43,281 nucleotides of DNA from a virus (taxonomy: Duplodnaviria; Heunggongvirae; Uroviricota; Caudoviricetes): IMG/VR virus record IMGVR_UViG_2909298281_000002. One strand, written 5' to 3'. The translations under genes were made by a program, and so were the position numbers. The notes beneath the pieces were generated by a model. It saw nothing but the letters and a program-made list of their open reading frames with translations, ran no database searches and was not told the origin of the DNA. Below are positions 1,445 to 17,451 of this stretch, in pieces. Position 1 is the first letter of the stretch. Each line of letters starts with the position of its first letter.

Positions 1445-1460
1445 TTTAAATCAATAAGTT
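1400..1460. other. putative attL junction (3' end of thrW abutting the integrase gene)
   Basis: The integrase stop codon lies 15 nt after the tRNA CCA end. P22-type integrases recombine within the 3' part of thrW. Core limits cannot be set because no attR copy was found in the window. Confidence 0.4.
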
Positions 1461-2622
1461 ACACATCATTAGTACCTTCCTTATTTTTTGACTGGGACAA
1501 ATTTGGGACCGATGGGTTCAGAATCGAGTCTATTTGCCGTGCGTGTTCGGTAAGGTGATTAGGCGCGAGGTGAGCATATCGACGAACCATTTCGATAGAC
1601 TCCCAGCCACCCATTTCCTGTAACACTGACAACGGGACTCCGGCTTGAACCAGCCAACTTGCCCAGGTGTGTCTCAAGTCGTGAAATCTGAAATCATCAA
1701 TACCAGCTCGTCTCAGCGCCGCTTTCCAGGCTGTGTTTGCGTCATACCGCATCTTCCTTACTGTTGGCGCTTTCGTTCCGTCTGGTTTGGTACAGCTTTC
1801 CTTGTACACAAATACCCAACGGTGATGATTCCCGATTTGTTTTTTCAAAACGCGACATGCAGTATCATTCAGCGCAACGCCGATTGCGCGGTTTGATTTA
1901 CTCTCTTCCGGGTTTATCCATGCCACCCGGCGCTGCATATCTATTTGTTGCCATTCAAGGTTGATGATGTTCGAGCGTCTTAAACCTGTTGCCAGTGCAA
2001 ATTCAACAACAGACTTTAATGGCTCCGGACATTCATCAATCAGCCTTTGTGCTTCATGGGGCTCCAGCCAGCGGATCCGTTTATTCTTTGGTTGAGGCAC
2101 TTTAATAATTGGTGCCTTATCCAGCATTTTCCATTCACGCTCTGCGGCTCTTAGTAGGGCCTTTATAAATGAAAGATGCGTAGCCTTCGTTGCAACGGAC
2201 GCTGGTTTTGGCGTGTATTCTGGAACAGGTTTCCCTTTTTTTCTGCATGCTTCTGCCCTGAGTTTCCAGTTTTCCTCATGACGCCGGTTCGTCATTTTCT
2301 GCATTGCTGAATAAATTTTTGATTCAGTAATGTCTCTTAGTTGCATTCCTGCGAAATGTTGAAGCCAGAATCCGATCCGGCTTTTGTCATCGTCCAGTGA
2401 TTTTTTATGTGCTTTCTCTTCAAGCCACCTGACACACGCTTCCTCGAACGTTATATCAGGTATTTCACCAAGTTTGCTGACCCGCCATGCTTCAGCCTTT
2501 AGCTTGTCATGGAGTTCTGTCGCCTGCCTTTTGTCCTTTGTTCCAAGAGACTGTTTAAATCTTTTACCGTTCGGCAATGTGAAACTGGCGTACCATATTT
2601 CACCTCTGCGGAAGAGTGACAT
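1459..2622 (-). CDS. int: tyrosine site-specific integrase (P22-type)
   Basis: 387-aa ORF; near-identical over its length to the phage P22 integrase as I recall it (N-terminus [31 protein letters not shown]-terminal catalytic region with [10 protein letters not shown] and RYAHL); adjacent to thrW. Confidence 0.95.
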
Positions 2623-2849
2623 TTTCTTTCCTCTGTTATGCCATCACCCGCGCTCACCTGGACAGTATGCAGCGGAGACTGAAGAGCCGCAATGCAGGCT
2701 TGTCGAGTTGTGAGGTAAGGAGATTTATTCTTAGTGGGATCTTTGCGTGTTGCCTGAAGACGCCCTGTGCGTATCCAGTTAATGGCAGTCGGTCTGGATA
2801 TTTTGAGAAAATGACAGGCCTCATCGAGTGTGAGGCTGTATGGCTCCAT
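2499..2849 (-). CDS. xis: excisionase
   Basis: 116-aa product starting [38 protein letters not shown], matching P22 Xis as recalled. ATG at 2849 overlaps the upstream stop (TAATG). The track ORF (2499..2933) has a 28-codon 5' extension that I reject. The 3' end overlaps the int start in another frame. Confidence 0.8.
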
Positions 2850-3154
2850 TATTTCACCTCTTGCTGTGACATTGTTGAAAAATGGATACCAGCTCGTTGC
2901 TGCCAGACGATCCAACCGAGAGTCATATCCCATGCCATGTATTCGTTATCGCCGTTTTTTGCTCTCCGACGATCTACTAAGTCACCGAAACGCTTTTCCA
3001 TGAATAATTCATAAGATTCGCGTTCATCTGGTTCTACTTCCAGAGATAGGAGTGCGATTTCATAAGCACGGCGCTCAATATCGTCTCGCACGTCAAGGCT
3101 GCTGATACGCTCTTTAATTTCTTTAATCAGTTCTTTGTCGGTAAAAGTGGTCAT
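2849..3154 (-). CDS. hypothetical early-left operon protein (YfdT-like by size and position)
   Basis: 101-aa ORF; ATG at 3154 overlaps the upstream stop; GGAG Shine-Dalgarno upstream. No domain recognised. Confidence 0.7.
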   Translation of the reverse strand: MTTFTDKELIKEIKERISSLDVRDDIERRAYEIALLSLEVEPDERESYELFMEKRFGDLVDRRRAKNGDNEYMAWDMTLGWIVWQQRAGIHFSTMSQQEVK

Positions 3155-3516
3155 TATGCTCCAGCCTCCGGTGCTTTTGGCATTACTGCCCAGTGAGTGA
3201 TATTGACGTTTTCAAGGTCCCCGACCTGAAATGTCCACTGCCATTCTCCGGTTTCTTTTTGTCCCCAGGTGTACCAGAGAGAACGCCAGCCAATCAGCCA
3301 GCCTTCTCCGTTAGCATCAAATAACAGAACACTTTCATTTGCTGGTGGCAGTTCAGTTGACACTGGTATTACTTTGTTTTCCAGTGCTGCACATTTAGCT
3401 TCAAGCGCATCGAATTTACGTACCAGGTATTCAGCATCCGTTTCATTCACTTTCAGGTCTCGTGGTACACATCTCCCGCGAAGAAACCCTTCCATTTCGA
3501 AAACATTCATGCGCAT
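3154..3516 (-). CDS. hypothetical early-left operon protein (YfdS-like by size and position)
   Basis: 120-aa ORF, ATG at 3516 with GGAG about 10 nt upstream; Trp-rich C-terminal half; overlaps the end of the upstream gene. Confidence 0.7.
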   Translation of the reverse strand: MRMNVFEMEGFLRGRCVPRDLKVNETDAEYLVRKFDALEAKCAALENKVIPVSTELPPANESVLLFDANGEGWLIGWRSLWYTWGQKETGEWQWTFQVGDLENVNITHWAVMPKAPEAGA

Positions 3517-4043
3517 TTGCGTAACTCCGATAACTCGTTAAAACGTTCCATAAACATCCCGTAGGCATGGCCCGGAGCCAGTGGAATAACTTTGAACATC
3601 TCTGTTGCCGGGATACCTTCCAGTACTGGCCAGAAAGAGCCATCATCAAGCCCGAGATCGCGGCGTTCGGTTGCCAGCATGATGAGATCGGCATATTTCA
3701 CAGGCGTGCTCATAACCGTGGGTAACCCGTATTTCTCACGGATTACGGCGTCTATTTTTTCTTCCATCCGTTTATAGTCAGGAAGAAGGCGTTTCAGCGG
3801 CGCGGGGATGTCCTGGCAATACGCTTCTGTTGCATCATGCATTAACGCTTCAAAAGCAAATTCCTGCGGCACCAGCTGGCTGCAAAGCACCGCATGTTGG
3901 GCGACACTGTAGAAGTGTGAAAGATGACCGGCAAAGCGACAGATATTTGAAAGGGAAACCGCGATATCGTTAATCACGATGTCGTCTTTATTTATCCTGT
4001 CATAATAAAAATGCTTCCCGGAAAAAGTTTTAATAAATGACAT
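3507..4043 (-). CDS. HD-domain phosphohydrolase (YfdR-like)
   Basis: His and His-Asp metal-ligand motifs (FAGHLSHFYSVAQHAV ... MHDATEAY). Start set at the ATG at 4043 (MSFIKTF...), which has GGAG 8–9 nt upstream; the track start at 4073 is a GTG without a ribosome-binding site. Confidence 0.8.
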   Translation of the reverse strand: MSFIKTFSGKHFYYDRINKDDIVINDIAVSLSNICRFAGHLSHFYSVAQHAVLCSQLVPQEFAFEALMHDATEAYCQDIPAPLKRLLPDYKRMEEKIDAVIREKYGLPTVMSTPVKYADLIMLATERRDLGLDDGSFWPVLEGIPATEMFKVIPLAPGHAYGMFMERFNELSELRKCA

Positions 4044-4136
4044 TTTGTTCTCCGCGTATATGTGCTGCACCACGCTGAATTCTGGTAAAAGGAAGCCCTC
4101 ACCATCCGGCGATTATTGAGTCAATTACGTTTCCAT

Positions 4137-4158
4137 AAATGCCCCCGCAGGGGCATTT
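4137..4158 (-). other. intergenic palindromic hairpin AAATGCCCC-cgca-GGGGCATTT between the YfdQ-like and YfdR-like genes
   Basis: Perfect 9-bp inverted repeat with a 4-nt loop seen directly; not followed by a U-run on either strand, so more likely an RNA stability or processing element than a strong terminator. Confidence 0.4.
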
Positions 4159-4170
4159 GCAGTAATGAAA

Positions 4171-4995
4171 TCAGGCGGTGAAAGTACCAATAAAGGTTTC
4201 TACTTTGCTGTCTTTGAATTTCTCAACAAGCAGATCACGAAATTCGTTAGCCATTTCTTCCTGCACCGCCTCCAGCTGAATAATGCGCAGAACCAGTACA
4301 GGACGATCGCCAGTGATAATGCTGAGGCGTAATTTAAATGGACGTTCTTTCAGACCTTCAAACGGAACGCATTTAAATTCAAATGCCACTGGCATAATAT
4401 CTTTGGTTTTCGCTTCGACAGACTCCATCAGGGAGCGTTTGCCGCTGAAGTCATTATCTTCAAAATCAGCGGTCTGGTTTGCTTCAATCGTGATTTTACG
4501 GACAGCCGCAGCCGCTTTTGTTGCCTGAATAGCGTCACCATTAGCATCAAAGCCCACAAGGTAGTCGGCCCAGTCTTCAATCCATTCTGCCAGTGACTTC
4601 TGGGAATGACGCTCGCCATTAACAGACAACAGAGCAGAGAACGGTGCTGTCTTTTTCAGTTTGAGAGTGGCGGTGTTATCTGCGTGACCTGGTTCATCAA
4701 TAGTACCCAGGTTAAGCACACTGACGGCTCGCATATTATCGGCATCGATAAAGCAGCGGGTGCCTTCATCTGCAAGATCTTTAGAATAACGGGTAAAGTC
4801 ATCGATGCTGGCAGTGGAAAGCGCACCACGGAAACGGAAGCGATTTAAATTAAATTTTTCCAGATCATGAATGCGGAAATTCTCAGGCAATGCCACAGCA
4901 TCGGCACCAATCTTACTGATAATTTCATTAACACCCTGAGCAGAAATAAGAGCATGGATTTGATTAATTGCGGTTGCGTCTAAGTTCTGAGACAT
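4171..4995 (-). CDS. DUF2303-family protein (YfdQ-like)
   Basis: 274-aa ORF beginning [20 protein letters not shown], matching E. coli CPS-53 YfdQ in length and sequence as recalled; GAGGA Shine-Dalgarno 8 nt upstream. Confidence 0.85.
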
Positions 4996-5060
4996 AATAA
5001 GTCCTCACTATATAAAGATATTCAGTGATGAGATAAATAATCAGTTAATTAAGAACGATA

Positions 5061-5423
5061 TTAATGACCTGCTGCGCGAAGTTTTCCGTCAGGTTCACCG
5101 GCAAGAGTCAGTAATTGTCCCTGGTCTTCCTGCAGAATAGTCAGGCGACCACCGCGATTGACATACATCGGCGTTTCGGTGGTGTCTTCTTCAGAAATTT
5201 TCCCGCGGTTAGTCGGGCGAACATATGAGAGTTTGTGTTTGATTTTCACACGGTTCTCATCAAACGGTTCGATTTCCAGGTTGAGCGAGACCTTACCTTT
5301 GGTTTTCGTGTTCATCACACCGGAAGCGACTTCACTGAGAACAGCGCCGATTTTGGTTTCAAATACGCCGCCGTCCAGCTCCCCGATAAATGCCTGCACA
5401 TCAGTACTGCGTTCGCTAGCCAT
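5061..5423 (-). CDS. YfdP-like phage protein
   Basis: 120-aa product from the third in-frame ATG (MASERSTDVQAFIGELDGG...), which has a GAGGAG Shine-Dalgarno 8 nt upstream. The track ORF (to 5654) starts at a TTG and runs through structured leader sequence. Confidence 0.75.
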   Translation of the reverse strand: MASERSTDVQAFIGELDGGVFETKIGAVLSEVASGVMNTKTKGKVSLNLEIEPFDENRVKIKHKLSYVRPTNRGKISEEDTTETPMYVNRGGRLTILQEDQGQLLTLAGEPDGKLRAAGH

Positions 5424-6014
5424 TTTGCTGCTCCTCATCATATCGACCCTGCAAGGTCGGTTGGTTTCTCCACAAAACAGAGAAGAACACCTGCGGTGAC
5501 TGCCGCCCGGATGGATTGGGTTATGAGCCCGTCGTCCGGTGATGCTCTTCTCTGTTTTGTAAAAAGAGCGGTACCAGCCGGAAGCAAGGGTACAAACTGG
5601 TACCGCCAAAGCAGTGGCTGTTGTGGTGGGGTTGTCACTCAGGCGTATGGTCAACCTGACAATCCGGTGTCCTCAACGGGGAAAGAGTAACCCCGCCATA
5701 CTTACCGCCGCGCCATTTCGCGGATTACCACAACGCTGAGAGCACTTAGCCAGTTACGGCACCACACTTTGTCGCGGCTCCATAAATGCCCTCATCGTTG
5801 CACCCTGGTCTCTTCCCAGGCGTCAAACCGAATCGCCACGCTGGTTAGGCGTCTTATCAGCATCATCATTGACTTGCACATTCCGGCTACCTGGTTTGTT
5901 TGCTCGAGCAAGGAGTGGATTGTCCCCTTTAACGTCACCAGACCGCTAACGACGCATGTGCCATACGCCGTGTTACAACCAAATTTTGTTTTAATCTTGC
6001 CTGTGTTGTGTTTC

Positions 6015-6056
6015 TTTTAGATACATTATGTATCTCATGGGTACATTGTCAAGTAT
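6015..6056 (-). promoter_or_regulatory. candidate PL-like early-left promoter with overlapping operator palindromes
   Basis: On the minus strand: TTGACA (plus 6047–6052), 17-nt spacer, ATAATG (plus 6024–6029). Overlapped by the palindrome GATACATAATGTATC and a GTACA half-site also present in the cI–cro intergenic region. Confidence 0.45.
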
Positions 6057-6080
6057 AAAAAAACCTGCCGAAGCAGGTTC
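6056..6080 (-). terminator. rho-independent terminator downstream of cI
   Basis: Minus-strand hairpin AACCTGC-ttcg-GCAGGTT followed by a run of seven T, starting 12 nt after the cI stop. Confidence 0.6.
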
Positions 6081-6091
6081 ATAAATATTGA

Positions 6092-6766
6092 TTAGGCCTT
6101 TATTGTGTATCTTCTTGGTTTTCCCGAGAAAATCACTGTACCAATTATAGAGCAATTACCGTTAATCTTAATGTAAGGCTCAGGCCAGTTTGGGTTTAAT
6201 GCTTTGAGATAACGCTGTGTTCCATCTTCTATCAATCGCTTGAAGGTGGTTTCGCCTGTATCGTGCATCAATGCAATAACGTCGTCACCGTGGCAGGCAG
6301 GGACTTCGGGATCAACAAAAATCATGTCTCCAGGGCGGTACTCATCAATCATTGAATCACCAATCACCCGCAAGATATAAGTCATTTCGCCACAGGGTAC
6401 AGGGCAGGGGTACGTTTCTGCTGTGCTCAAATCAACCTCAGAATAGCCAACTTCTTTCCATGCTCCGGCCTGTACCCATGATATGACAGGGACTAACGTT
6501 ATTTGTTTGTTAGTGATTGAAACATCAGGTTTTTTTGTGATGTTCGTTGTCTGGTGTTCTTGATCAAGCCATCCGACAGGCAGGTCGAAACATTTTTCGA
6601 TGTGCCGTGCCATGCTGTCACCGATATTTTTAGTAGCGCCATCCCCCATAAACCTGCTGGTTTGGGTTGGCTCGCGATCAATCATGGTGGCAAAGGATGA
6701 ATTTCCGCCAACACCATCTCTCAGTTTTCTGGCGTTAGACCGCCGGATGTCATGGATTGTTTTCAT
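6092..6766 (-). CDS. cI: CI-type prophage repressor (HTH domain plus LexA-like S24 autopeptidase domain)
   Basis: 224 aa; N-terminal helix-turn-helix; Ala-Gly cleavage site (VQAGAWKE); Ser nucleophile in GDSM and a downstream Lys (TFKRL); divergent from cro across an operator-rich intergenic region; no Shine-Dalgarno, consistent with a leaderless PRM-type message. Confidence 0.9.
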   Translation of the reverse strand: MKTIHDIRRSNARKLRDGVGGNSSFATMIDREPTQTSRFMGDGATKNIGDSMARHIEKCFDLPVGWLDQEHQTTNITKKPDVSITNKQITLVPVISWVQAGAWKEVGYSEVDLSTAETYPCPVPCGEMTYILRVIGDSMIDEYRPGDMIFVDPEVPACHGDDVIALMHDTGETTFKRLIEDGTQRYLKALNPNWPEPYIKINGNCSIIGTVIFSGKPRRYTIKA

Positions 6767-7057: not shown

Positions 7058-7088
7058 CAGAACACCTTCAATTTTTAACCACAGAACG

Positions 7089-7652
7089 ATGAGGCTAACC
7101 GTGGGTAAGTATCACTGGAAAGTAGAAAAACAGCCTGAGTGGTACGTGAAAGCTGTCAGAAAAACTATCGCAGCGTTGCCGGGTGGTTACGCTGAAGCAG
7201 CTGACTGGCTGGATGTAACAGAGAACGCATTATTTAACCGCCTTCGTGCCGATGGCGATCAGATTTTCCCGCTGGGATGGGCAATGGTTTTACAGCGCGC
7301 GGCTGGCACTCACTACATTGCGGATGCTGTCGCACAGTCTGCTGGTGGGGTGTTCGTATCGCTTCCTGAAATTGAGGAAGTAGAGAACGCCGATATAAAC
7401 CAGCGCCTGCTGGAAGTCATCGAACAGATCGGGAATTACTCAAAGCAGATTCGTTCGGCAATCGAAGATGGGGTCGTGGAGCCACACGAGCAGACAGCAA
7501 TTAATGATGAGTTGTATCTGTCAATTTCGAAGCTCCAAGAGCATGCAGCACTGGTCTACAAAATCTTTTGCGCTCCAGAAAAGAGTGACGCCCGCGAGTG
7601 TGCAGCTCCGGGCGTCGTGGCGTTTTGTGTCTGTGGAGAAACTAACGCATGA
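7089..7652 (+). CDS. early regulatory protein in the cII position (possibly YdaT/CII-like)
   Basis: 187-aa ORF directly after cro; family assignment is by position and weak recall only. Alternative GTG start at 7101 has a better Shine-Dalgarno (GAGG). Confidence 0.65.
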   Translation: MRLTVGKYHWKVEKQPEWYVKAVRKTIAALPGGYAEAADWLDVTENALFNRLRADGDQIFPLGWAMVLQRAAGTHYIADAVAQSAGGVFVSLPEIEEVENADINQRLLEVIEQIGNYSKQIRSAIEDGVVEPHEQTAINDELYLSISKLQEHAALVYKIFCAPEKSDARECAAPGVVAFCVCGETNA

Positions 7653-8485
7653 ACAGTTTAACGGCAAATAACCGTTTGTCGCAACAGCTGGTGGTCAGCG
7701 TCGCTGAACACCTGTTGTTACGGCATGAATGCAGATTACCAAATCACCTGGCTGTAAGTAACCACAGAGAACTTTACCTGACTGTGGGGGGCGAGTTGTG
7801 CAGGAACTTAACCGCTGGTTTAGTGACGGAAGAGGACTTTATGTTCATGTTATTCGTTGGGAGCCAGAAACACAGCGCGTTATCTATCTTCGCAAAGACT
7901 ACCCGCATGAGTGCTTTAGTCCTTTGTGGAAATTCAGGCGTGATTTTATTGAGTGTGAAGGACCACCAGCACATTGATTCTGCCATTCCGGGACGTTACA
8001 CTGTTCAGGCACCTTATAAAGCGGGTGCCGGGATTGGCGTCCTGGAATTGATCAAGGCGATATATGACGCGCCAGCGTCTTTTTTATCGTCCGCATTTGC
8101 TCACATCAAAGTTATGGTGGGCTGGGCGGGGGCATCGAAAGATGCGCCGGTTTCCTTGATCACCGGTTACGCCAACCCCGTTCAGTTCACCACCAGCGAA
8201 ATTGGCGTTTCCGGTGGTGGAAGTATTTCACCGATCAAGGAGGCTGCCATCATGGCTACTGTCCCAGCCCTCACTCGTCTGAATGATGAAGACTTACATA
8301 AACTCAGTTATGTAACAACAGCACTACGTGCTCTGCGCAAGGTAACTCTTTCAGATCCGCAGGCGCATCAACTTCTGGTAGAAACCCTTCTTAACTTGCA
8401 GGCTGAACGTATTCGTTTGGCGGATAAGGCTAATCTTCATATTCACCGTCTCCTGAATATCAGCGGAGGGCATCGTCATGCTTAA
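7649..8485 (+). CDS. hypothetical replication-region protein
   Basis: 278-aa ORF; ATG overlaps the upstream stop (ATGA), indicating translational coupling; no motif recognised. Confidence 0.65.
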   Translation: MNSLTANNRLSQQLVVSVAEHLLLRHECRLPNHLAVSNHRELYLTVGGELCRNLTAGLVTEEDFMFMLFVGSQKHSALSIFAKTTRMSALVLCGNSGVILLSVKDHQHIDSAIPGRYTVQAPYKAGAGIGVLELIKAIYDAPASFLSSAFAHIKVMVGWAGASKDAPVSLITGYANPVQFTTSEIGVSGGGSISPIKEAAIMATVPALTRLNDEDLHKLSYVTTALRALRKVTLSDPQAHQLLVETLLNLQAERIRLADKANLHIHRLLNISGGHRHA

Positions 8486-8714: not shown

Positions 8715-9529
8715 GTATGGAGCTGATGGTTAAAGCGATGAAAATTCGAGTGGGTAATCCATTGCGAAAACTGGTTCTGATCAAGCTGGCTGATAATGCC
8801 AGCGATCAGGGTGAGTGCTGGCCCAGCTACCAGCATATTGCTGACCAGTGCGAGATTAGCAAACGTTCTGTGATGAATCATATTGCGGCCCTTTGTGAGT
8901 CCGGGCTGGTAAAAAAAGTCACCCGGAAAGGTGAAAAAGGTAACTCAAGTAATATCTATCTCCTTCATCTGGATGGTGCAGGAGATTCACTAGGGGGTAG
9001 TGCAAATAATTCACTATCTGGTGCAGCAAATTCACCAGGTAGTGCAGGAGTTGCACTAGGGGGTAGTGCAGGAGATTCACCCAGAACCAGTCACTCTTTT
9101 GAACCAGTCAAAGAACCAGTCAATGAACCAATAGCTGTTGGTGCATCTGCTGATGAGTCTGTGCGAGTTCGTTCAAACCGACCGGAATACTCTCCGGAGT
9201 TTGAGCAGGCATGGCTGGCATATCCCAAACGTGCTGGTGGCAATTCAAAATCTGCAGCCTTCAAAGCCTGGAAAGCCCGTTTGAATGAGGGGGTAAACCC
9301 CGAAACCATGCTGGAAGGTGTGAAACGCTATGCGGGCTGGGTATCTGCGATGGGTAACAGCGGCACACAATTTGTGAAACAGGCTGTCACGTTCTTTGGT
9401 CCGGATCGTCATTTCGAAGAATCCTGGGAAGTTCCTGCGGTATCTGCAGCCAGACGTGAGGACCCGTACTTCAAAGCCAGTTACGACAACGTGGACTACA
9501 GCCAGATCCCGGCAGGATTCAGGGGGTGA
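8711..9529 (+). CDS. replication initiation protein (O-like, N-terminal HTH domain) containing the origin iterons
   Basis: 272 aa; N-terminal winged-HTH replication-initiator-like region (LVLIKLADNASDQGECWPSYQHIADQCEISKRSVMNHIAAL); GGAGGTG Shine-Dalgarno; internal low-complexity linker encoded by direct DNA repeats, as in lambda O. Confidence 0.8.
   Translation: MSMELMVKAMKIRVGNPLRKLVLIKLADNASDQGECWPSYQHIADQCEISKRSVMNHIAALCESGLVKKVTRKGEKGNSSNIYLLHLDGAGDSLGGSANNSLSGAANSPGSAGVALGGSAGDSPRTSHSFEPVKEPVNEPIAVGASADESVRVRSNRPEYSPEFEQAWLAYPKRAGGNSKSAAFKAWKARLNEGVNPETMLEGVKRYAGWVSAMGNSGTQFVKQAVTFFGPDRHFEESWEVPAVSAARREDPYFKASYDNVDYSQIPAGFRG
8976..9131. repeat. putative origin of replication: five about 15-bp iterons plus three GAACCAGTCA repeats
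   Basis: Iterons GTGCAGGAGATTCAC and variants at 8976, 9000, 9021, 9042 and 9066, spaced 21–24 bp; then GAACCAGTCA at 9084, 9101 and 9113; all inside the initiator gene. Confidence 0.7.
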
Positions 9530-9531
9530 TC

Positions 9532-10020
9532 ATGAGTCTTTTGAATGAAGTTCAGAAATTCATTGAAGCCCATCCGGGGTGTACTTCCGGAGACATTGCG
9601 GATGCTTTTGCAGGTTACTCACGGCAGCGCGTTCTGCAGTCAGCAAGCAAGTTACGTCAGAGTGGGCGTGTGGCTCACCGTTGTGAAGGGGATACACGCA
9701 GACATTTCCCGCGCCAGACAAAGATATCGCCGGAGGCGGAACGGCAACCAGTTCGTGAAACCAGACCTGTGCGCAATTTCTATGTCGGCACTAACGACCC
9801 GCGGGAGATTTTATGCCTGACCCGCCAGGCTGAAGAACTGGAGTCCAGGGGCTTATACCGTCGTGCTGCAACGGTGTGGATGGCGGCATTCCGTGAAAGC
9901 CACTCCCAGCCAGAACGAAACAATTTTCTGGCGCGTCGTGAGCAGTGTTTACGGAAAAGCAGCAAGCGCGCTGTATCGAGTGATGAGTGGTATCTGTCAG
10001 GGAATTACGTGGGGGCGTAA
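9532..10020 (+). CDS. PerC-like transcriptional regulator with N-terminal wHTH-like region
   Basis: 162 aa from the ATG at 9532 (AGGGGG Shine-Dalgarno). C-terminal region LYRRAATVWMAAF...RREQCL fits the PerC/Pch family signature as I recall it. No Walker motif, so not a helicase loader. Confidence 0.6.
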   Translation: MSLLNEVQKFIEAHPGCTSGDIADAFAGYSRQRVLQSASKLRQSGRVAHRCEGDTRRHFPRQTKISPEAERQPVRETRPVRNFYVGTNDPREILCLTRQAEELESRGLYRRAATVWMAAFRESHSQPERNNFLARREQCLRKSSKRAVSSDEWYLSGNYVGA

Positions 10021-10346
10021 TGACGACGTTAACTCAATGCCAGCAGCAGGTGCTGGATATGCTGATTTCTTACCAGAAAGAGCGTGGCTTTCCGCCAACC
10101 AATCAGGAGGTGGCAACCATGCTGGGATACCGTTCGGTGAATGCAGCGGTGGAGCATCTTCGCGCACTGGAGAAAAAAGGCGTCATCACGATAAAGCGTG
10201 GTGTGGCCCGGGGGATCACGCTTCATACCGCGGTGAAGGACGACGACAGCGAGGCGGTCGGGATTATCCGCTCACTGCTTGCCGGTGAGGAAAACGCAAG
10301 GCTGCGTGCAACTCACTGGTTACATGAGAGAGGCCTGAAAGTATGA
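10020..10346 (+). CDS. LexA-family DNA-binding-domain protein lacking the peptidase domain
   Basis: 108 aa from the ATG at 10020 (TAATG overlap, GGGGG upstream). Aligns by eye to LexA residues 1–90 (MTTLTQCQQQVLDML..GFPPTNQEVATMLGYRSVNAAVEHLRALEKKGVI...ARGITL) and keeps an Ala-Gly (LLAGEEN), but ends before any S24 catalytic domain. Confidence 0.75.
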   Translation: MTTLTQCQQQVLDMLISYQKERGFPPTNQEVATMLGYRSVNAAVEHLRALEKKGVITIKRGVARGITLHTAVKDDDSEAVGIIRSLLAGEENARLRATHWLHERGLKV

Positions 10347-10732
10347 AGCTGATCCTGCCTTTCCCGCCCAGCGTGAACACCTACTGGCGACACCCCAACA
10401 AAGGGGCATTTGCTGGTAAGAGCCTGATAAGCGCGGCGGGGCGAAAATTTCAGAGCGCGGCGTGCGCAGCAATAGTTGAGCAGTTACGTCGTCTGCCAAA
10501 ACCAACGTCGGCACCTGCTTCAGTGGAGATCGTGTTGTTTCCTCCGGATAACCGGATCCGCGATCTGGACAACTATAACAAGGCGCTGTTTGACGCCCTG
10601 ACCCACGCGGGTGTGTGGGAAGACGACAGCCAGGTGAAAAGAATGCTGGTGGAGTGGGGACCGGTTATCCCGGAAGGGAAGGTCGAGATCACTATCAGTA
10701 AGTACGAGAAAACGGCGGGTGCAGCCGCCTGA
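10343..10732 (+). CDS. rusA: Holliday-junction resolvase RusA
   Basis: 129 aa; RusA-family pattern (PPSVNTYWRH ... RDLDNYNKALFDALTHAGVWEDDSQV); usual position between the replication genes and Q. Confidence 0.9.
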   Translation: MKLILPFPPSVNTYWRHPNKGAFAGKSLISAAGRKFQSAACAAIVEQLRRLPKPTSAPASVEIVLFPPDNRIRDLDNYNKALFDALTHAGVWEDDSQVKRMLVEWGPVIPEGKVEITISKYEKTAGAAA

Positions 10733-10751
10733 TTAAGAGGAGAAACGAAGT

Positions 10752-11549
10752 ATGAATAATCTGATGGTTATTGATGGTATTGAAGTTCGTCGTGATGCTT
10801 ATGGGCGTTACAGCCTGAACGATCTGCACAGGGCTGCTGGTTCTCTGGATAAGCATAAGCCTGCATTCTGGCTCCGCAATGAGCAAACTGAACGTTTAAT
10901 AAGCGAGTTGCAGATTTGCAACTCGGTCAATATAGAACCAGTTAACGTTATTCGTGGCGGAAATAACCAGGGGACGTATGTCTGCAAAGAACTGGTGTAT
11001 GCCTATGCAATGTGGATCAGCCCGTCATTCCATCTGAAGGTGATCCGTACTTTCGACATGGTAACCAGTGCACCGGAAAAATTATCCGGACAGGCTGCTG
11101 ACAAGATGCAGGCTGGTGTGATTCTGCTGGACTTTATGCGCCGGGAATTAAACCTGTCTAACTCTTCAGTGCTTGGAGCCTGTCAGAAACTCCAGGAGGC
11201 TGTTGGCTTACCGAATCTGGCACCGCGCTATGCCATTGATGCTCCTGCTGACGCGCCTGATGGCTCAAGCCGCCCCACGCTGTCACTGAGTGCACTGCTG
11301 AAGCAGTATGGTATCCGCCTGACAGCTAATCAGGCATATCACCAGATGGTGAAGCTGGGGATCGTCGAGCAGCGCGAACGATACAGTCGTACCGCGATTA
11401 ACAACATCAAAAAATTCTGGTCGCTGACAGCGAAAGGCTGCATGTTCGGCAAGAACATCACCAGTCCCGCAAATCCGCGCGAGACGCAGCCGCATTTCTT
11501 CGAATCCCGATTCCCTGAGCTGTTAAAGCTGCTCGATACCGTACATTGA
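10752..11549 (+). CDS. KilA-N domain protein (antirepressor-like)
   Basis: 265 aa with N-terminal KilA-N-like region (IDGIEVRRDAYGRYSLNDLHRAAG...KPAFWLRNEQTERLISEL); AAGAGGAG Shine-Dalgarno. Confidence 0.8.
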   Translation: MNNLMVIDGIEVRRDAYGRYSLNDLHRAAGSLDKHKPAFWLRNEQTERLISELQICNSVNIEPVNVIRGGNNQGTYVCKELVYAYAMWISPSFHLKVIRTFDMVTSAPEKLSGQAADKMQAGVILLDFMRRELNLSNSSVLGACQKLQEAVGLPNLAPRYAIDAPADAPDGSSRPTLSLSALLKQYGIRLTANQAYHQMVKLGIVEQRERYSRTAINNIKKFWSLTAKGCMFGKNITSPANPRETQPHFFESRFPELLKLLDTVH

Positions 11550-11556
11550 GGTGATC

Positions 11557-12546
11557 GTGAGAGCACTACTGACCCCTGAAATTGCCCCGCGTATGGGGAT
11601 CGTATTGTTCAGACCAGGTTCAGAGCTGATGCCCCTATTTATGCAGGGGCGTGTCCTGCTGGAGCCTGAGCCGGAACGTTATTCATCTTTCGCCAGTGGT
11701 GCCGTTCCGGCGGCATCACAACCGCTGGCGGATGATCCTGCCGTTCGGGCCGTGTTCCGCAATGAGGCAGTGATCCGTCGTGCTGGTGGCGTGGAATGTC
11801 TTGAAAGCTGGTTACTTCGTGAAAAAGGCTGTCAGTGGCCTCATTCCGACTGGCACAGCGAGAACATGACCACAATGCGACATGCTCCGGGCGCAATCCG
11901 TCTGTGCTGGCACTGCGATAACCAGCTGCGCGATCAATTCACGGAACGGCTGGAATCAATGGCAACGGATAACTGTGCCCGCTGGGTGTTGTCTGTCGTG
12001 CGTCGGGATCTCGGTTTTGATGATAGTCACGTTGTGACAATGCCGGAACTGTGCTGGTGGCTGATTCGTAATGACCTGGCGGATGCCTTACCGGAAAGTG
12101 CAGCCCGTAAGGCACTTAGATTACCGAAGCCTGTTGTGCCGTCTGCTACCCGGGAAAGTGACCTTGTGCCTTCGGTTCCTGCCACCAGCATCATCCAGGA
12201 TAAAGCGAAAAAGGTGCTGGCGCTGAAAGTGGATCCTGAGTCGCCGGAGTCTTTTATGTTACGCCCAAAACGTCGCCGCTGGGTTAATGAAAAGTACACG
12301 CGCTGGGTTAAGACACAGCCGTGTGCATGTTGTGGAAAGCCCGCTGATGATCCCCACCACCTGATAGGTCACGGTCAGGGTGGAATGGGTACAAAAGCGC
12401 ATGATCTCTTTGTGTTGCCTTTGTGCAGAAAGCATCACGACGAGCTGCATGCGGATACCGTGGCATTTGAAGAGAAGTATGGCTCCCAGCTGGAGCTGAT
12501 ATTTCGTTTTATCGATCGTGCGCTGGCAATTGGCGTGCTGGCCTGA
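11557..12546 (+). CDS. DUF968-domain protein (YdfU-like, Cys/His-rich C-terminus)
   Basis: C-terminal CACCGK...HHLIGHGQGG...CRKHHDELH motif typical of DUF968 proteins. Start uncertain: GTG at 11557 has GAGG 6 nt upstream; the track uses GTG at 11551. Confidence 0.75.
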   Translation: MRALLTPEIAPRMGIVLFRPGSELMPLFMQGRVLLEPEPERYSSFASGAVPAASQPLADDPAVRAVFRNEAVIRRAGGVECLESWLLREKGCQWPHSDWHSENMTTMRHAPGAIRLCWHCDNQLRDQFTERLESMATDNCARWVLSVVRRDLGFDDSHVVTMPELCWWLIRNDLADALPESAARKALRLPKPVVPSATRESDLVPSVPATSIIQDKAKKVLALKVDPESPESFMLRPKRRRWVNEKYTRWVKTQPCACCGKPADDPHHLIGHGQGGMGTKAHDLFVLPLCRKHHDELHADTVAFEEKYGSQLELIFRFIDRALAIGVLA

Positions 12547-12575
12547 TTTTGTGGAGAATTTTGTGGAGAAGGTTG

Positions 12576-12926
12576 ATGCGTGATATGTATGAAGTATTGG
12601 ACCTCTGGGGAGCATGGGCTGCAGCAGATAACAGTGGTGTGGACTGGCAGCCTGTTGCTGCAGGGTTTAAAGGTTTACTACCTCATGGAAAGAAAACACG
12701 CCAACAATGCGATGATGATGAAGGAATCATGATTGACAGCTGTGTTGCGCGATTGCGGAAATATAAGCCAGAAGAATATGAACTGATCATTGCTCACTTT
12801 GTTATCGGTATTTCACTCCGTTCAATAGCAAAGAAACGGAAATGCTCTGACGGGTCAATCAGAAAACAACTTCAAGCAGCAATAGGAGTGATTGAAGGTA
12901 TTTTGTTGATTATTAAGCCCCTGTAG
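12576..12926 (+). CDS. late-gene antiterminator Q (QuuD-like)
   Basis: 116 aa from the ATG at 12576 (GGAGAAGG Shine-Dalgarno); LDLWGAWAAADNSGVDWQPVAAGFKGL...CDDDEG pattern matches the DLP12 QuuD-type family as recalled. Confidence 0.85.
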   Translation: MRDMYEVLDLWGAWAAADNSGVDWQPVAAGFKGLLPHGKKTRQQCDDDEGIMIDSCVARLRKYKPEEYELIIAHFVIGISLRSIAKKRKCSDGSIRKQLQAAIGVIEGILLIIKPL

Positions 12927-12934
12927 GGCTTAAT
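12912..12934. terminator. convergent-gene hairpin ATTAAGCCC-ctgta-GGGCTTAAT spanning the stops of Q and the cassette membrane gene
   Basis: Perfect 9-bp inverted repeat seen directly; no U-run on either side, so terminator function is uncertain. Confidence 0.35.
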
Positions 12935-13514
12935 AATTCATATGAATTCTGTTTCCGAGATAATATAATCCAAAGAAAGTTGATACTAAGAGTTGCCAAA
13001 CGAGGAAAGTAAATACAACAGTATAAACCATTAAAACAATACTGTTTTGATAGACATTGATTAATGGTGAAAATATAGCATTAAGTATTATTATAACAAT
13101 GCTTAATGCTGTTAAAAAAGAGAATAGCATGCAAAGAAATAAGCGTCTGGTCAGAACCTCCTCTGAATTTACTACTTTTCCATTTTCTTTTGTTACTTTT
13201 ATTTCAATAGAGGCATTTCTTTCATTGCTAATCAATGGTAAATCAATCTCAGCTCTATTGAAAGTTGCTATGGCGGCCAGAGCGGCAATATAAAACCCTG
13301 GTAGGTTAGAGATAAATGAAACGATTGATTTAATGAAACCATTGTCATCAAATAAATCTTTGACAGGGATTTTTAATAGAATGAAAAGTACTGCTGTGAT
13401 AGAAGTAAGTAGAATTGGTGCTACCCAATCATATGCAGCTTTGCCGCTAATACCTTTAATAAAAAGATATCCAAACGGCTTGCCTAGATGAGAGAAAACT
13501 GAAAGTATTGGCAT
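12930..13514 (-). CDS. predicted four-helix integral membrane protein (second gene of the accessory cassette)
   Basis: 194 aa; ATG with GAGG 8 nt upstream, 7 nt after the upstream stop; four hydrophobic segments (about residues 25–47, 60–85, 125–150, 155–185); about 30% GC against about 50% for the flanking phage DNA. Confidence 0.8.
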   Translation of the reverse strand: MPILSVFSHLGKPFGYLFIKGISGKAAYDWVAPILLTSITAVLFILLKIPVKDLFDDNGFIKSIVSFISNLPGFYIAALAAIATFNRAEIDLPLISNERNASIEIKVTKENGKVVNSEEVLTRRLFLCMLFSFLTALSIVIIILNAIFSPLINVYQNSIVLMVYTVVFTFLVWQLLVSTFFGLYYLGNRIHMNY

Positions 13515-13521
13515 AATAACC

Positions 13522-14544
13522 TCACATCAAATCTATCATTTTCACAACAAACTCTAGTTCAATTTTAACATATGAATCCTTCAGGCGCGAATTAAAGTTA
13601 TCGATAATGCTTTTCTTAATAAATGTTTTTTCTAAATTATTAAGATTGATGTTTGAGGTTTTGAAATCAACCTGCCTTGGTTTATTTGTTTCAGGATCTT
13701 GGAATTTAACCTTTAATTTATCATAACCACCATTCATTTTTTTATTGAAATGAGATGCTACATTTTTAATCCATCCAATAACATTGTCACCATGATTTGG
13801 AAGTAATTTTAATGTACTTTCAGTCGGAATGTAAGGTGAATTAACATCAGGAGCATTAATTGTTCCGAATTGATCCTTGACTAATATGACATCTGATAAT
13901 CCTTTTTGGCTTATTTTATTAAAAAGCTCCTTGTCTAACATTCCTGTAAATTCAAATATTGGTTTGTATCGTATTTTTACTTCTTTTTTTGATGTTGTAG
14001 AAATAACGTTAGTTGGATGTTTTGCGGTAAATAAGTCTTCATTGTCTTTCGCTACTTCAAAGAGAATTTTGTCTAAAAAACTATTTAACCGGGCCGTAGA
14101 TACACCTGGGGTAGATGTACAAATCATATCATAGGTTCTTTTATTTCCATTTAATGATATGACAACATAGGTAGAAACTTCATAGCCTTCACCTTGTTCA
14201 TATTTTGGTTGGATTTCAACGCGTTCATTAGTATTTGTATTTTTTACAACGGTAGTACTTCCATTTTTATCAACACTATTAATAAGAAGGACAATATGCG
14301 TGGGTGAGTTATCTGGAAGTAAAGGATAAAGTTGTACATCTTGGAGAGTAACTACAATATTCCCAGAATCATATGAATGAACGAGTCCCTTTTGTTTAAC
14401 AATCAATGGGGCAAGCATGTACATTTCCGGAACAGGACATATACACTGGGCTTTTACCTCTTGTGTTGCCTTGGTTCTAAACTTTGTGTCAATGGTCAGA
14501 CTATGATGAGTAACGAGTCTTTCGCTAGCATTTAATTTTGCCAT
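13522..14544 (-). CDS. hypothetical soluble protein (first gene of the accessory cassette), no recognisable domain
   Basis: 340-aa ORF, ATG at 14544; no Walker, HxD or nuclease motif seen; Lys/Asn-rich and AT-rich codon usage; tightly coupled to the downstream membrane gene. Confidence 0.8.
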   Translation of the reverse strand: MAKLNASERLVTHHSLTIDTKFRTKATQEVKAQCICPVPEMYMLAPLIVKQKGLVHSYDSGNIVVTLQDVQLYPLLPDNSPTHIVLLINSVDKNGSTTVVKNTNTNERVEIQPKYEQGEGYEVSTYVVISLNGNKRTYDMICTSTPGVSTARLNSFLDKILFEVAKDNEDLFTAKHPTNVISTTSKKEVKIRYKPIFEFTGMLDKELFNKISQKGLSDVILVKDQFGTINAPDVNSPYIPTESTLKLLPNHGDNVIGWIKNVASHFNKKMNGGYDKLKVKFQDPETNKPRQVDFKTSNINLNNLEKTFIKKSIIDNFNSRLKDSYVKIELEFVVKMIDLM

Positions 14545-14581
14545 GAAATCATCCGATTATGATTTTTCGATTTATTTGTTA

Positions 14582-14610
14582 ATCTTACAAAAACGCTAAC
14601 GCGTACGCAA
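14582..14610 (-). promoter_or_regulatory. candidate sigma70 promoter for the accessory cassette
   Basis: Minus strand TTGCGT (plus 14605–14610), 17-nt spacer, TAAGAT (plus 14582–14587), about 35 nt upstream of the 340-aa gene start. Confidence 0.35.
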
Positions 14611-14655
14611 AAATTATTGTATCGTGTTAAGAGTGGTTACTTCGCCACACAGCTT

Positions 14656-14685
14656 AAACCCGCCGTCGAGCGGGTTTTGTCGTTT
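14656..14685 (+). terminator. tR'-like intrinsic terminator in the late leader (PR'/qut expected just upstream)
   Basis: AAACCCGC-cgtcga-GCGGGTTT hairpin followed by TGTCGTTTCT, about 145 nt upstream of the holin; analogous to the lambda 6S terminator that Q overrides. No PR' hexamers could be pinned. Confidence 0.5.
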
Positions 14686-14829
14686 CTGGGGCTGGGGATT
14701 CGTTGGTCCTGGTCTATTCCGCAGTTATCCATTGGTTCGGCTTCTTTGACGTTTCCGCTTCTAATTTGCTGTACATGATGTTCCCTCAATTTGCACCTGC
14801 TGTATCAGCGAGGTGAGAGATAACTACAA

Positions 14830-15156
14830 ATGCCTCATAACCCAAATACCTGGCTGGAGTTGTTCCAGAGCTGGTGGTGTGGAGACACACCGCTGGGCGC
14901 AGTGATTATGTCGATCGTTATGGCTGGCTTGCGCATTGCCTATTTTGGCGGTGGTGGTGGCTGGAAACGAAAAACGCTCGAGATTTTGCTCTGTGGTGCT
15001 CTGACGCTGACTTTTGCATCCGCTCTTGAGTATGTCGGATGGCCTAAATCTCTTTCTGTTGCCATTGGTGGCGGCGTTGGGCTGATCGGGGTCGATGCTA
15101 TTCGTGGGGCTGCAATGAGAGTAATCGGTAATAAGTTTGGTGGCTCTAAGGAGTAA
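14830..15156 (+). CDS. holin (lambda S family)
   Basis: 108 aa with three hydrophobic segments and a charged C-terminus; first gene of the lysis cassette, directly upstream of the endolysin. Confidence 0.85.
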   Translation: MPHNPNTWLELFQSWWCGDTPLGAVIMSIVMAGLRIAYFGGGGGWKRKTLEILLCGALTLTFASALEYVGWPKSLSVAIGGGVGLIGVDAIRGAAMRVIGNKFGGSKE

Positions 15157-15159
15157 TTT

Positions 15160-15636
15160 ATGCAGGTACTAAATTCCCAGCGTAAAGCTTTCCTGGATAT
15201 GGTGGCATGGTCAGAGGGAACGGATAACGGGCGACAACCGACACGTAACCACGGTTATGACGTTATTGTCGGTGGAGAACTCTTCACTGATTACTCCGAT
15301 CACCCTCGCAAGCTTGTCACGCTAAACCCGAAACTCAAATCAACAGCTGCAGGCCGTTATCAACTTCTTTCGCGCTGGTGGGATGCTTACCGCAAGCAGT
15401 TAGGGCTGACAGACTTCTCTCCTAAAAGCCAGGATGCTGTTGCATTACAGCAGATTAAAGAGCGTGGCGCTTTACCGATGATTGATCGCGGCGATATTCG
15501 TCAGGCTATCGATCGTTGCAGCAATATCTGGGCGTCGTTACCTGGTGCAGGTTACGGTCAGTATGAACATAAAATCGGTGACCTGATTTCCCGGTTTAAA
15601 GAGGCTGGTGGGGTGGTAAATGAAGTTGAGCTATAA
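15160..15636 (+). CDS. R: endolysin (lambda R-type lytic transglycosylase)
   Basis: 158 aa, near-identical to lambda R as recalled (QRKAFLDM.AWSEGTDNGRQ.TRNHGYDVIVGGELFTDYSDHPRKLVTLNPKLKST); AAGGAG Shine-Dalgarno. Confidence 0.95.
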   Translation: MQVLNSQRKAFLDMVAWSEGTDNGRQPTRNHGYDVIVGGELFTDYSDHPRKLVTLNPKLKSTAAGRYQLLSRWWDAYRKQLGLTDFSPKSQDAVALQQIKERGALPMIDRGDIRQAIDRCSNIWASLPGAGYGQYEHKIGDLISRFKEAGGVVNEVEL

Positions 15637-16012
15637 GCTGGTTATCGCTGCATTCTTCTTTACTGTCATCGGTTCTTTCATCTGGTCTGCCAACCACTAC
15701 TACAGCAAATATCAGCACGAAAAGAAACATGCTGATGAGGCTGTACAAAATGCTGAATCTGCAACAGCCATTACCCGTAACGTCCTGCAATCACTGCAAA
15801 TCGTCAATACAGTTATAGAGGTTAACCAGCATGCAAAACAGCAGATCGCACTGGAGTCACAGAGAACCCAGAAAGATATCAAAGTGGCTGTTGCGGATGA
15901 TGATTGTGCTGCACGCCTTGTGCCTGCTGCCGCTGCTGAGCGGTTGCGGAAGTACGCGGACAGTTTACGTACAAGTTCCGGCAGTACCACTCCCGACGAA
16001 TCTGATCGCTGA
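15620..16012 (+). CDS. i-spanin (Rz-like)
   Basis: 130 aa with an N-terminal transmembrane helix and a charged periplasmic domain; overlaps the endolysin end and contains the Rz1 start in another frame. Confidence 0.8.
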   Translation: MKLSYKLVIAAFFFTVIGSFIWSANHYYSKYQHEKKHADEAVQNAESATAITRNVLQSLQIVNTVIEVNQHAKQQIALESQRTQKDIKVAVADDDCAARLVPAAAAERLRKYADSLRTSSGSTTPDESDR

Positions 16013-16154
16013 AACCTCGCAACCAGTTATTCCTGAGCCGCTGACTTTTGAGGGCAGCCTAGATTTGAACGTTAGTCTGTTATCGGCGTTGGGTCAATGT
16101 AACCTTGACAAGGCTAGCATCAGACGGATTGAACAATCACGATTCTCACAATAG
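15897..16154 (+). CDS. o-spanin lipoprotein (Rz1-like)
   Basis: Starts inside Rz in another frame; signal peptide with lipobox (MMIVLHALCLLPLLSGC) and a proline-rich mature region. The track ATG at 15831 would add a hydrophilic extension atypical of a signal peptide. Confidence 0.7.
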   Translation: MMIVLHALCLLPLLSGCGSTRTVYVQVPAVPLPTNLIAETSQPVIPEPLTFEGSLDLNVSLLSALGQCNLDKASIRRIEQSRFSQ

Positions 16155-16330: not shown

Positions 16331-16726
16331 TTAGTCCTGCATGAATCTCTCTCTTTCTATTTCATAACCGTCGCTTTCTTCTCGGCAGTTTTGACATAAG
16401 AGATCTCCATAGTAACCTTGTAAGTTATAAGCTTCTTCTAGCTCATAGCCAGAGATAACCTTAGAGCAACCGTTATGGTGCCCGCCTGGATTTCTAACAC
16501 CACCACATGGGTGAGAAAGGAAAGGTTGCAATACCCTCTTTTGCGGTGCAGAAAGACTATCAAATCCTTTGGTTACAGCTAACTTAGCGATTCCACTAAC
16601 TTTGCCATCTTCATGATAAAATGCGTCACAATTAAGCATTGTATTGAGTAATGATTCTACTTCGTCAGACACTGGAAATACCTCTCTATAAACAAAAGTA
16701 ATAGCTATCACACAAAGTTTAAGCAC
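16331..16726 (-). CDS. hypothetical Cys/His-rich protein (YbcV-like by position)
   Basis: ORF in an AT-rich island after the lysis genes; C-terminal C-x8-HH-x2-C ... C-x2-C cluster. Start uncertain: GTG at 16726 (131 aa) or ATG at 16639 (102 aa), neither with a clear Shine-Dalgarno. Confidence 0.55.
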   Translation of the reverse strand: MLKLCVIAITFVYREVFPVSDEVESLLNTMLNCDAFYHEDGKVSGIAKLAVTKGFDSLSAPQKRVLQPFLSHPCGGVRNPGGHHNGCSKVISGYELEEAYNLQGYYGDLLCQNCREESDGYEIERERFMQD

Positions 16727-16844
16727 ATAAACTAAAATAAATCAAAATGTTAATGATAATCGTATAGTAAAAAGAAAAGGCTGAAGTAGCCGAGAGGTAG
16801 CAATAGCAGGTTAAGGCAGGCACTTAGTAAGTGCCTGCCACTGG

Positions 16845-17054
16845 TTAGTAACAAGATGGTGTATTGTTGAATCTGTAAGAGAGGCGAACTATTTCAGAAA
16901 CCCCTTTTCGGTTTAACAATCGCCTTATATTCTCTGGATTTTTGTAAATAAAAGGATTCCTTAGATCCTCGAACACTCCTCCTGCAATGCAAATCAAATA
17001 TTCCAGATCTTCTTGTGTTGGTAAGGTTGAAAGTTTGTTATTTGCATTATTCAT
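16845..17054 (-). CDS. hypothetical small protein (YbcW-like)
   Basis: 69 aa from the ATG at 17054 with AGGAG 9 nt upstream (MNNANNKLSTLPTQEDLEYLICIAGGVFEDLRNPF...); resembles DLP12 YbcW as recalled. Confidence 0.6.
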   Translation of the reverse strand: MNNANNKLSTLPTQEDLEYLICIAGGVFEDLRNPFIYKNPENIRRLLNRKGVSEIVRLSYRFNNTPSCY

Positions 17055-17175
17055 TTTACAGCTCCTAATTATTGCCGTTATTGGCGTGGTGCATGATAGG
17101 AAGTTTGTGATTTTTAACGGTAGCTGGGGCAAGCTTTTTGTGAATCCTATGCACATCATCAAATCGAGTTTTTTA

Positions 17176-17451
17176 ATGCCACAACGAACCCCAAAAGCCT
17201 GCCGTGTTCGCGGCTGCCGCCATACCACTACTGACCCGTCAGGCTACTGCGAAAGCCACAAAAGCGAAGGCTGGAAGCAATACAAGCCAGGCCAGTCCCG
17301 ACACCAGCGCGGTTATGGTTCGCGGGGTTGTCCCTCATGCTCGCCAGTCCTGTGCGGGGGTGGAAGAAACAGGACACTCACACAGATTCTTGTAGGTCGA
17401 TGCTATTCCTTTCTGGATTATCCCGATGCCATTCATGCAAGGGCTGTATAA
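17176..17451 (+). CDS. Cys-rich ORF resembling the N-terminal zinc-binding part of cos-phage HNH endonucleases; no H-N-H motif
   Basis: MPQRTPKACRVRGCRHTTTDPSGYCESHKSEGWKQ...HQRGYGS resembles the start of HK97 gp74-type HNH proteins as recalled, but no HNH catalytic motif follows in any frame. No Shine-Dalgarno. May be a remnant. Confidence 0.3.
   Translation: MPQRTPKACRVRGCRHTTTDPSGYCESHKSEGWKQYKPGQSRHQRGYGSRGCPSCSPVLCGGGRNRTLTQILVGRCYSFLDYPDAIHARAV

Follow-up and report, generated by a model that had tools for sequence, protein, structure and literature searches.

The window (the whole stretch of DNA that we analysed, 43,281 nt of the Caudoviricetes record IMGVR_UViG_2909298281_000002) carries a two-gene cassette between the antiterminator gene Q and the holin gene. 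The features of this region are, from left to right:

12549-12926, plus strand: antiterminator Q gene, the left flank (PF06530, E = 5.9e-44; also from the annotations of phage SfII and RefSeq)
12909-12937, no strand assigned: 12-bp perfect inverted repeat with a 5-nt loop, ATTATTAAGCCC-CTGTA-GGGCTTAATAAT (-17 kcal/mol on either strand)
12930-13514, minus strand: gene B, PDC-M53B / RexBpp family, for a 194-aa four-helix inner-membrane protein (predicted)
13515-13521, minus strand: A-B spacer GGTTATT, 7 nt (from the sequence; a GAGG Shine-Dalgarno overlaps the TGA stop of A)
13522-14544, minus strand: gene A, PDC-M53A / RexApp family, for a 340-aa cytoplasmic protein with a predicted RdgC/RexA-like fold
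14582-14610, minus strand: putative leftward cargo promoter (-35 TTGCGT at 14605-14610, 17-nt spacer, -10 TAAGAT at 14582-14587)
14596-14829, plus strand: shared phage backbone, with a conserved late leader and a tR'-like hairpin (14656-14677) and T-run (from alignment)

A first-pass annotation of this DNA had proposed open reading frames of 340 and 194 amino acids, and their coordinates and 7-nt gap are exactly as it gave them. The short spacer, with GAGG over the stop codon of A, is consistent with translational coupling. Q ends (at 12926) 3 nt away from the stop codon of B, and the holin starts to the right of the cassette, at 14830. The AT-richness that had been noted is also there, with a GC content of 0.29-0.36 over 12850-14500 vs. 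0.49-0.59 on either side. As described earlier, the cassette lies between Q and the tR'-like hairpin with its T-run, on the strand opposite the late operon. PR' was not located in the window, although the tR'-like hairpin was found.

We set the right boundary of the cassette by aligning five cargo variants and Lambda_4C10. The cargo ends at about 14595, and the element at 14586-14678 is kept in many lambdoid phages. The TTGCGT -35 lies in the shared backbone and the TAAGAT -10 lies in the edge of the cargo. Four other cassettes in this slot use the same -35 and a 17-nt spacer with a -10-like sequence of their own (TAGAAT, TAATAT, TATATT, or the weaker TACTTT). Because a shared -35 meets a cargo-specific -10 at 17 nt, comparison of the cassettes favours a real leftward promoter. 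The proposed sigma70-like promoter is thus present and comparatively supported, but it is weak: it matches the consensus at 7/12 positions and is absent from the output of a consensus promoter scan. (We rejected an alternative nearer the ATG, TTAACA-15-CATAAT, because of its 15-nt spacer and the near absence of a leader that would result.) At the other end, the inverted repeat covers the stop codons of Q and B, which converge there, and each of the alternative cargos brings a GC-rich hairpin of its own to the Q junction. The repeat is possibly a bidirectional terminator as well as the left boundary of the cargo. Because a canonical U-tract is absent, its function as a terminator is something we infer.

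The first-pass annotation considered the interval between Q and the holin to be a cargo site, and related prophages bear this out. In those with 90-94% identical flanks, the slot is filled by at least four other AT-rich cassettes on the opposite strand, which makes at least five different cassettes in the slot, this one included. The alternatives are from E. coli prophages and have a GC content of 0.29-0.38 (L059 734-2064, L060 734-1734, L061 744-2610, and L062 728-2291). Two alternative cassettes (273+161 aa and 343+179 aa) encode a soluble protein and a small protein with four hydrophobic segments, and one encodes a STAS-like DUF4325 protein. We found no match between the alternative cargos and PADLOC or the profiles of A, B, and RexA, and Pfam, which was tried too, gave no relationship. 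The alternative cassettes may be further unrecognised defence pairs. Lambda_4C10 carries a porin in the same slot. In the literature, we found nothing specific on the lambdoid Q-holin slot as a defence hotspot.

The window is a mosaic lambdoid prophage. It has int/xis and the block from DUF968 through Q and the cassette to the lysis genes in common with Shigella phage SfII, whose cassette is 99.7% identical and is annotated as the hypothetical proteins SfII_49/50. But the window matches SfII only at 1399-4154, 7073-7662, and 9454-16102. Since the immunity region and the structural module differ, this is a mosaic phage and not SfII itself. At the start of the window is an ORF of 417 aa, which is the size of icd, followed by an SfII/e14-type integrase. 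In E. coli ARS-C101, icd likewise lies next to a near-identical prophage. This arrangement suggests that the prophage is integrated at icd.

Two other regions of these prophages attracted our attention. Between icd and intE, the ARS-C101 prophage (L144, 2957-5043) has an extra AAA-family ATPase and a hypothetical gene. This pair is absent from the window, where the distance from the first ORF to int is only about 200 nt, and it is possibly a further variable cargo, located at the end with the attachment site. In the window, an AT-rich patch (16331-17228, minus strand; GC 0.35-0.42) follows Rz/Rz1 and has ORFs of 131 and 127 aa; the corresponding gene is annotated as hypothetical in near-identical E. 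coli prophages. It may be an opposite-strand moron downstream of the lysis cassette.

We then compared the two proteins to databases of families. Neither had a hit above threshold in Pfam or NCBIfam. In PHROGs, they match two families without known function (E = 8e-222 and 4e-104). In PADLOC at E ≤ 1, A and B matched only PDC-M53 models, and did so over their full lengths: PDLC04696 for A (a PDC-M53A model; E = 1.6e-32, residues 7-340) and PDC-M53B for B (E = 1.8e-54, residues 6-193). Protein A also matched four additional M53A models, down to E = 6.6e-13. Of the profile searches that had been suggested, PADLOC placed both proteins in PDC-M53 and Pfam gave no hit above threshold. Both proteins are already modelled as candidate PDC-M53 in PADLOC-DB v2.0.0 (2023). 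The PDCs are described as "guilt-by-embedding" candidates, the majority of which are still without validation, and a search of the literature for "PDC-M53" gave a single incidental listing. Other known systems were considered and rejected. For Kiwa (a 4-TM KwaA and KwaB with DUF4868), there was no PADLOC match to KwaA or KwaB and no Pfam match to DUF4868, and in our cassette the soluble gene comes first. Zorya, CBASS-TM, and other known systems with membrane effectors were not matched in PADLOC.

A relative of the pair has been studied experimentally. RexABpp (PP_5643/PP_5644), from prophage P1 of Pseudomonas putida KT2440, is a RexAB-type system that blocks phage infection and was characterised in January 2026 (Rosendahl et al., Sci Rep 2026, PMC12894663). 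Deleting rexABpp raises susceptibility to external phages, protection needs both genes, and RexApp binds DNA (PMC12894663). Overexpressing RexApp brings about RexBpp-dependent growth arrest and membrane permeabilisation (PMC12894663). Suppressors of the toxicity of RexApp were located in rexBpp, and a strain deficient in rexBpp withstands overexpression of RexApp (PMC12894663), which implies that RexBpp is the effector.

Several lines of evidence tie RexABpp to PDC-M53. First, four published primers, one of them of 35 nt, match our locus L117 exactly, and 6 of 7 reported residue positions agree with it, so L117 is the RexABpp locus. Second, terminal peptides derived from the RexABpp primers are an exact match to a family member (L029), and the RexApp-like A protein of L029 matches the same five M53A models as the window's A. 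Third, the window's B is 37% identical to RexBpp (E = 2e-32), and the window's A is about 20% identical to RexApp. At the level of residues, Tyr185 of B, within GLYYLG, corresponds to Tyr181 of RexBpp (Y181H causes loss of function), and Trp30 corresponds to Trp25. By these sequence comparisons, RexABpp itself belongs to the PDC-M53 family, and its experimental data may therefore carry over to the family. This link is made here; PMC12894663 does not mention PADLOC. There are minor discrepancies with the published description. A 10-nt insertion is placed "in the T103 codon" (PMC12894663), but the genomic RexBpp ORF (L117 5992-6558) has T102 and D103. Also, primers 5643-T25-Nt-Fw and 5643-T25-Ct-Rev, as given in the text copy of the supplement, have no exact match to L117. 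These are probably transcription errors or off-by-one numbering.

This relationship changes how the cassette should be described. The first-pass annotation had put it forward as a candidate novel, uncharacterised system, and this claim fails because the family is already catalogued (as PDC-M53) and one member of it (RexABpp) has been validated. By the same token, since it is of the same family as RexABpp, the cassette is probably a real defence-type module of a catalogued kind. As judged from sequence identity, the enterobacterial/SfII clade is distant from the validated member.

What do the proteins look like? For protein A, RexA is in the top two PDB matches of the predicted structure. This predicts an RdgC/RexA-like fold, which would be DNA-clamp-like, and A is a putative phage sensor and DNA binder. 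RexA itself is built of a split globular domain and a dimerisation domain, in an RdgC-like arrangement. A word-indexed search gave A only in Enterobacterales, but an exhaustive profile search widened the family to 272 clusters at 50% identity, nearly all of them single-domain proteins of 310-350 aa. When we scanned 142 divergent members with Pfam, looking for RexA, RdgC, or any other domain, the output was only noise, and PDB sequences had no match to the profiles of A1 and A3.

We tried harder to relate the pair to RexA and RexB by sequence. Neither protein matched RexA or RexB models from Pfam or PADLOC at E ≤ 1. (As a control, lambda RexA strongly matches both the Pfam and the PADLOC models of RexA.) No A-family member out of 142 matched PF15969 (RexA). 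With hhalign, the A family vs. a RexA family of 29 sequences gave E = 0.069-0.07, which is not significant, and the B family vs. lambda RexB gave E = 0.11, with only a 20-residue stretch of TM2 aligned. Shallow or deep alignments of A against lambda RexA or the 29-sequence family, re-alignment with L-INS-i, a subfamily with only Pseudomonas, low mact, and global mode all gave E ≥ 0.04. Since every one of these comparisons was non-significant, we reject membership in the RexA/RexB families. The earlier statement that neither protein shows recognisable similarity to RexAB therefore holds for sequence (hhalign, Pfam, and PADLOC) but not for the predicted fold of A. The parallel to two-component RexA/RexB systems that had been drawn is supported by the homology to the validated RexABpp, the RexA/RdgC-like predicted fold of A, and a lambda-like architecture.

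For protein B, hydropathy identifies four hydrophobic segments, and an AlphaFold model (pLDDT 85.7) has helices at 25-46, 60-84, 123-154, and 158-189. Both agree with the four membrane helices, and hence the membrane embedding, that had been predicted for the 194-aa protein. Lysine and arginine are in excess in the N-terminus and the central loop, and this distribution of charge fits a topology with both termini inside. The B family has 682 clusters at 90% identity and extends to Vibrio, Shewanella, Aeromonas, Halomonas, and Chromobacterium. Its invariant motifs (LPGFYIAALAAIATF, LTRR, and GLYYLG) are all found in the window's B. In a Foldseek search of viral structures, the model of B had no significant match. 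The best TM score among the viral structures (0.42-0.47, with a non-significant E = 1.9) went to BFVD A0A0A7RXT6, a 165-aa uncharacterised protein. It comes from mycobacteriophage Sbash, the phage with the validated Rex-like pair gp30/gp31.

Which of the two proteins is the effector? We propose B as a putative membrane-damaging effector. The logic could be reversed, so that A carries the antiviral or toxic activity and the only task of B is to sequester or restrain A up to the moment of infection. This is how the Butters pair gp30/gp31 works: its RexA-like protein acts as the effector, and defence can do without the membrane partner (PMC12894663). Also, lambda RexA is reported to have activities that are independent of RexB (Adams 2024). 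However, the suppressor genetics of RexABpp and the tolerance of the rexBpp-deficient strain make B the effector (PMC12894663). Furthermore, B is better conserved than A and occurs more widely, and it has invariant, intramembrane motifs. In matched loci, A has diverged more (median identity of 25% vs. 42%), and B had the higher identity in 48/48. We consider the reversed roles to be unlikely, and B remains our choice of effector.

We also examined the genes' neighborhoods. Of 54 genome loci, 49 have an A-family gene directly upstream of B and on its strand (most of the exceptions are at contig ends or are fragments); so do 78 of 80 viral loci, and L117. The A-B junction is -4 to +16 nt in most loci of the family. 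Taking the PHROG matches and this conserved adjacency together, the pair is far beyond chance. The family is present in about 100 viral contigs and spans Gamma- and Betaproteobacteria. Among 5,426 complete E. coli genomes, the family is rare, with 24 carriers: 9 have the window's allele, and 15 have one that is ~67% identical to it and also adjoins Q. All 24 copies are annotated as hypothetical.

The first-pass annotation had asked whether homologs sit in defence islands or in the same slot of other prophages, and the family has members within restriction operons and in this slot. In two loci, L034 (5559-13776) and L038 (5580-15747), from Psychromonas ossibalaenae and a Psychrobium MAG, A-B lies between hsdS and hsdR within a type I restriction-modification (R-M) operon, without surrounding phage genes. 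In L038, a GmrSD type IV restriction gene adjoins the pair as well. In 33 viral loci, A-B is in the same DUF968/Q-holin slot and on the opposite strand. Other copies adjoin genes for terminase, portal, or tape-measure proteins, ArdC/ICE genes, or HTH/S24 repressors. As far as gene neighbors can indicate, these are the contexts of mobile defence cargo.

These contexts bear on two other explanations. One is that the pair mainly regulates its own prophage (the switch between lysogeny and lysis, or the timing of late genes and lysis) and that phage exclusion is secondary or absent. The cassette does abut the late-promoter region, with a divergent junction in common; some relatives are directly downstream of a cI-like repressor; and lambda RexA is reported to bind DNA and to promote the lytic transition independently of RexB. 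But the copies within R-M operons that lack phage genes, and the many different positions of the pair in phage genomes, speak for a module that is autonomous. The family is listed by PADLOC as a candidate for defence, and deletion of rexABpp sensitises cells to external phages (PMC12894663). A regulatory role as the main function seems quite improbable to us.

The other explanation is a moron unrelated to defence, either an addiction (toxin-antitoxin-like) module or a membrane function in lysogenic conversion. A growth-arresting membrane protein could serve as an addiction toxin, and this is AT-rich, horizontally acquired cargo in a slot that holds a porin in Lambda_4C10. We think this very unlikely, given the homology to RexABpp, whose deletion specifically raises phage susceptibility, and the embedding of the pair in R-M loci. 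In addition, the cassette proteins have no match in Pfam to transporters, enzymes, or known toxin-antitoxin families.

Overall, our proposal is that the cassette, as an enterobacterial member of the PDC-M53/RexABpp family, serves as a Rex-type anti-phage module of two genes carried by the prophage, in which A senses infection and B is the effector. We put the probability of this reading at roughly 70%. The cassette is presumably expressed in lysogens, where the pair would be transcribed leftward from its own promoter, at the junction of cargo and backbone, independently of the Q-dependent late operon. Protein A, in the cytoplasm and with its RdgC/RexA-like fold, would be the infection sensor, and it probably dimerises and binds DNA. 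When a susceptible phage infects, A would activate B, a four-helix inner-membrane protein that is probably oligomeric. B would then compromise the integrity or the potential of the membrane, bring growth to a halt, and abort the infection. This analysis provides the membership in the family, the conserved pairing, the fold prediction, the topology in the membrane, and the defence-type contexts; DNA binding by A, B-dependent arrest, membrane permeabilisation, and phage protection come from the literature on RexABpp and lambda RexAB. By analogy, we infer that the enterobacterial pair (B 37% and A about 20% identical) acts like RexABpp.

This result ties an anonymous PADLOC candidate to a validated system, and the family is large. 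The means by which RexA detects infection and RexB halts it have, to our knowledge, resisted explanation for about 70 years. With natural members in prophages of E. coli and Shigella, SfII among them, a Rex-type system is at hand in the most tractable setting of host and phage. Only a handful of Rex-like pairs were known until recently (five are given in PMC12894663). Deep alignments of the family can be used for co-variation and for modelling of complexes, and GLYYLG, LTRR, and LPGFYIAALAAIATF are targets for mutation. Two "hypothetical proteins" of SfII and of E. coli prophages can be re-annotated, and the Q-holin slot is flagged for further defence cargo.

A more speculative idea, which we hold to be doubtful but worth stating, concerns the slot as a whole. 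The Q-holin junction of e14/SfII-like prophages might be a socket, with a fixed -35 and interchangeable cargos that each bring a -10 and a hairpin. This pair and the 273+161-aa and 343+179-aa pairs might be independent modules of a cytoplasmic sensor and a 4-TM effector within a broad, sequence-diverse Rex-like superfamily, with the A protein of PDC-M53 structurally intermediate between RdgC and RexA. If so, these intermediate A proteins would suggest that Rex sensors share descent from an RdgC-like DNA clamp.

Finally, we compared the cassette to known systems. It resembles PDC-M53 in having the same two-gene architecture and full-length matches to the models for A and B, and the family loci within R-M operons fit the "guilt-by-embedding" origin of the PDCs. 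But PDC-M53 is a computational label without a name, a mechanism, or validation. RexABpp is the closest characterised system, and it differs in several ways. The best PADLOC sub-model for A is 04694 there vs. PDLC04696 here, and the proteins are slightly shorter (A 330 vs. 340 aa; B 188 vs. 194 aa). RexABpp lies close to a CI-like repressor and HicAB in the immunity region, whereas our pair is in the Q-holin slot, opposite the late operon. The host and the target phages differ as well.

The likeness of A to E. coli RdgC (PDB:2OWL) is at the level of predicted fold only; neither A nor 142 members of its family match PF04381. RdgC is encoded in the chromosome and stands alone, with no membrane partner, and it acts in the control of recombination, not in defence. 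The Rex-like systems of actinophages (gp30/gp31 of Sbash, gp44/gp43 of CarolAnn, and gp30/gp31 of Butters) also combine a cytosolic, RexA-like protein with a 4-TM partner. They are expressed from prophages, their central cytoplasmic loop is important, and they defend against heterotypic phages. But their sequences are unrelated, their hosts are from another phylum, and in Butters the roles are reversed.

As for lambda RexAB (PF15969/PF15968), both systems are prophage-encoded, with a cytoplasmic protein followed by a 4-TM protein, and expression in the lysogen is presumed for ours. In lambda, rexA precedes rexB with a gap of 15 nt, and both B and RexB have four hydrophobic segments. As in lambda, the 4-TM partner is directly downstream, and its N-terminus, C-terminus, and central loop are predicted to be cytoplasmic. 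However, A exceeds RexA in length by 60 aa and B exceeds RexB by 50 aa, and the central loop of B contains a beta-hairpin. Lambda rexAB is in the immunity region and is co-transcribed with cI, whereas our pair is between Q and the holin. This is also so in SfII, where what comes after cI is a terminator rather than rex genes. Nevertheless, in four viral loci (L116, L119, L120, and L138; about 3700-6560), a lambda-cI-like repressor is directly upstream of A-B on the same strand, a layout that mirrors lambda's cI-rexA-rexB.
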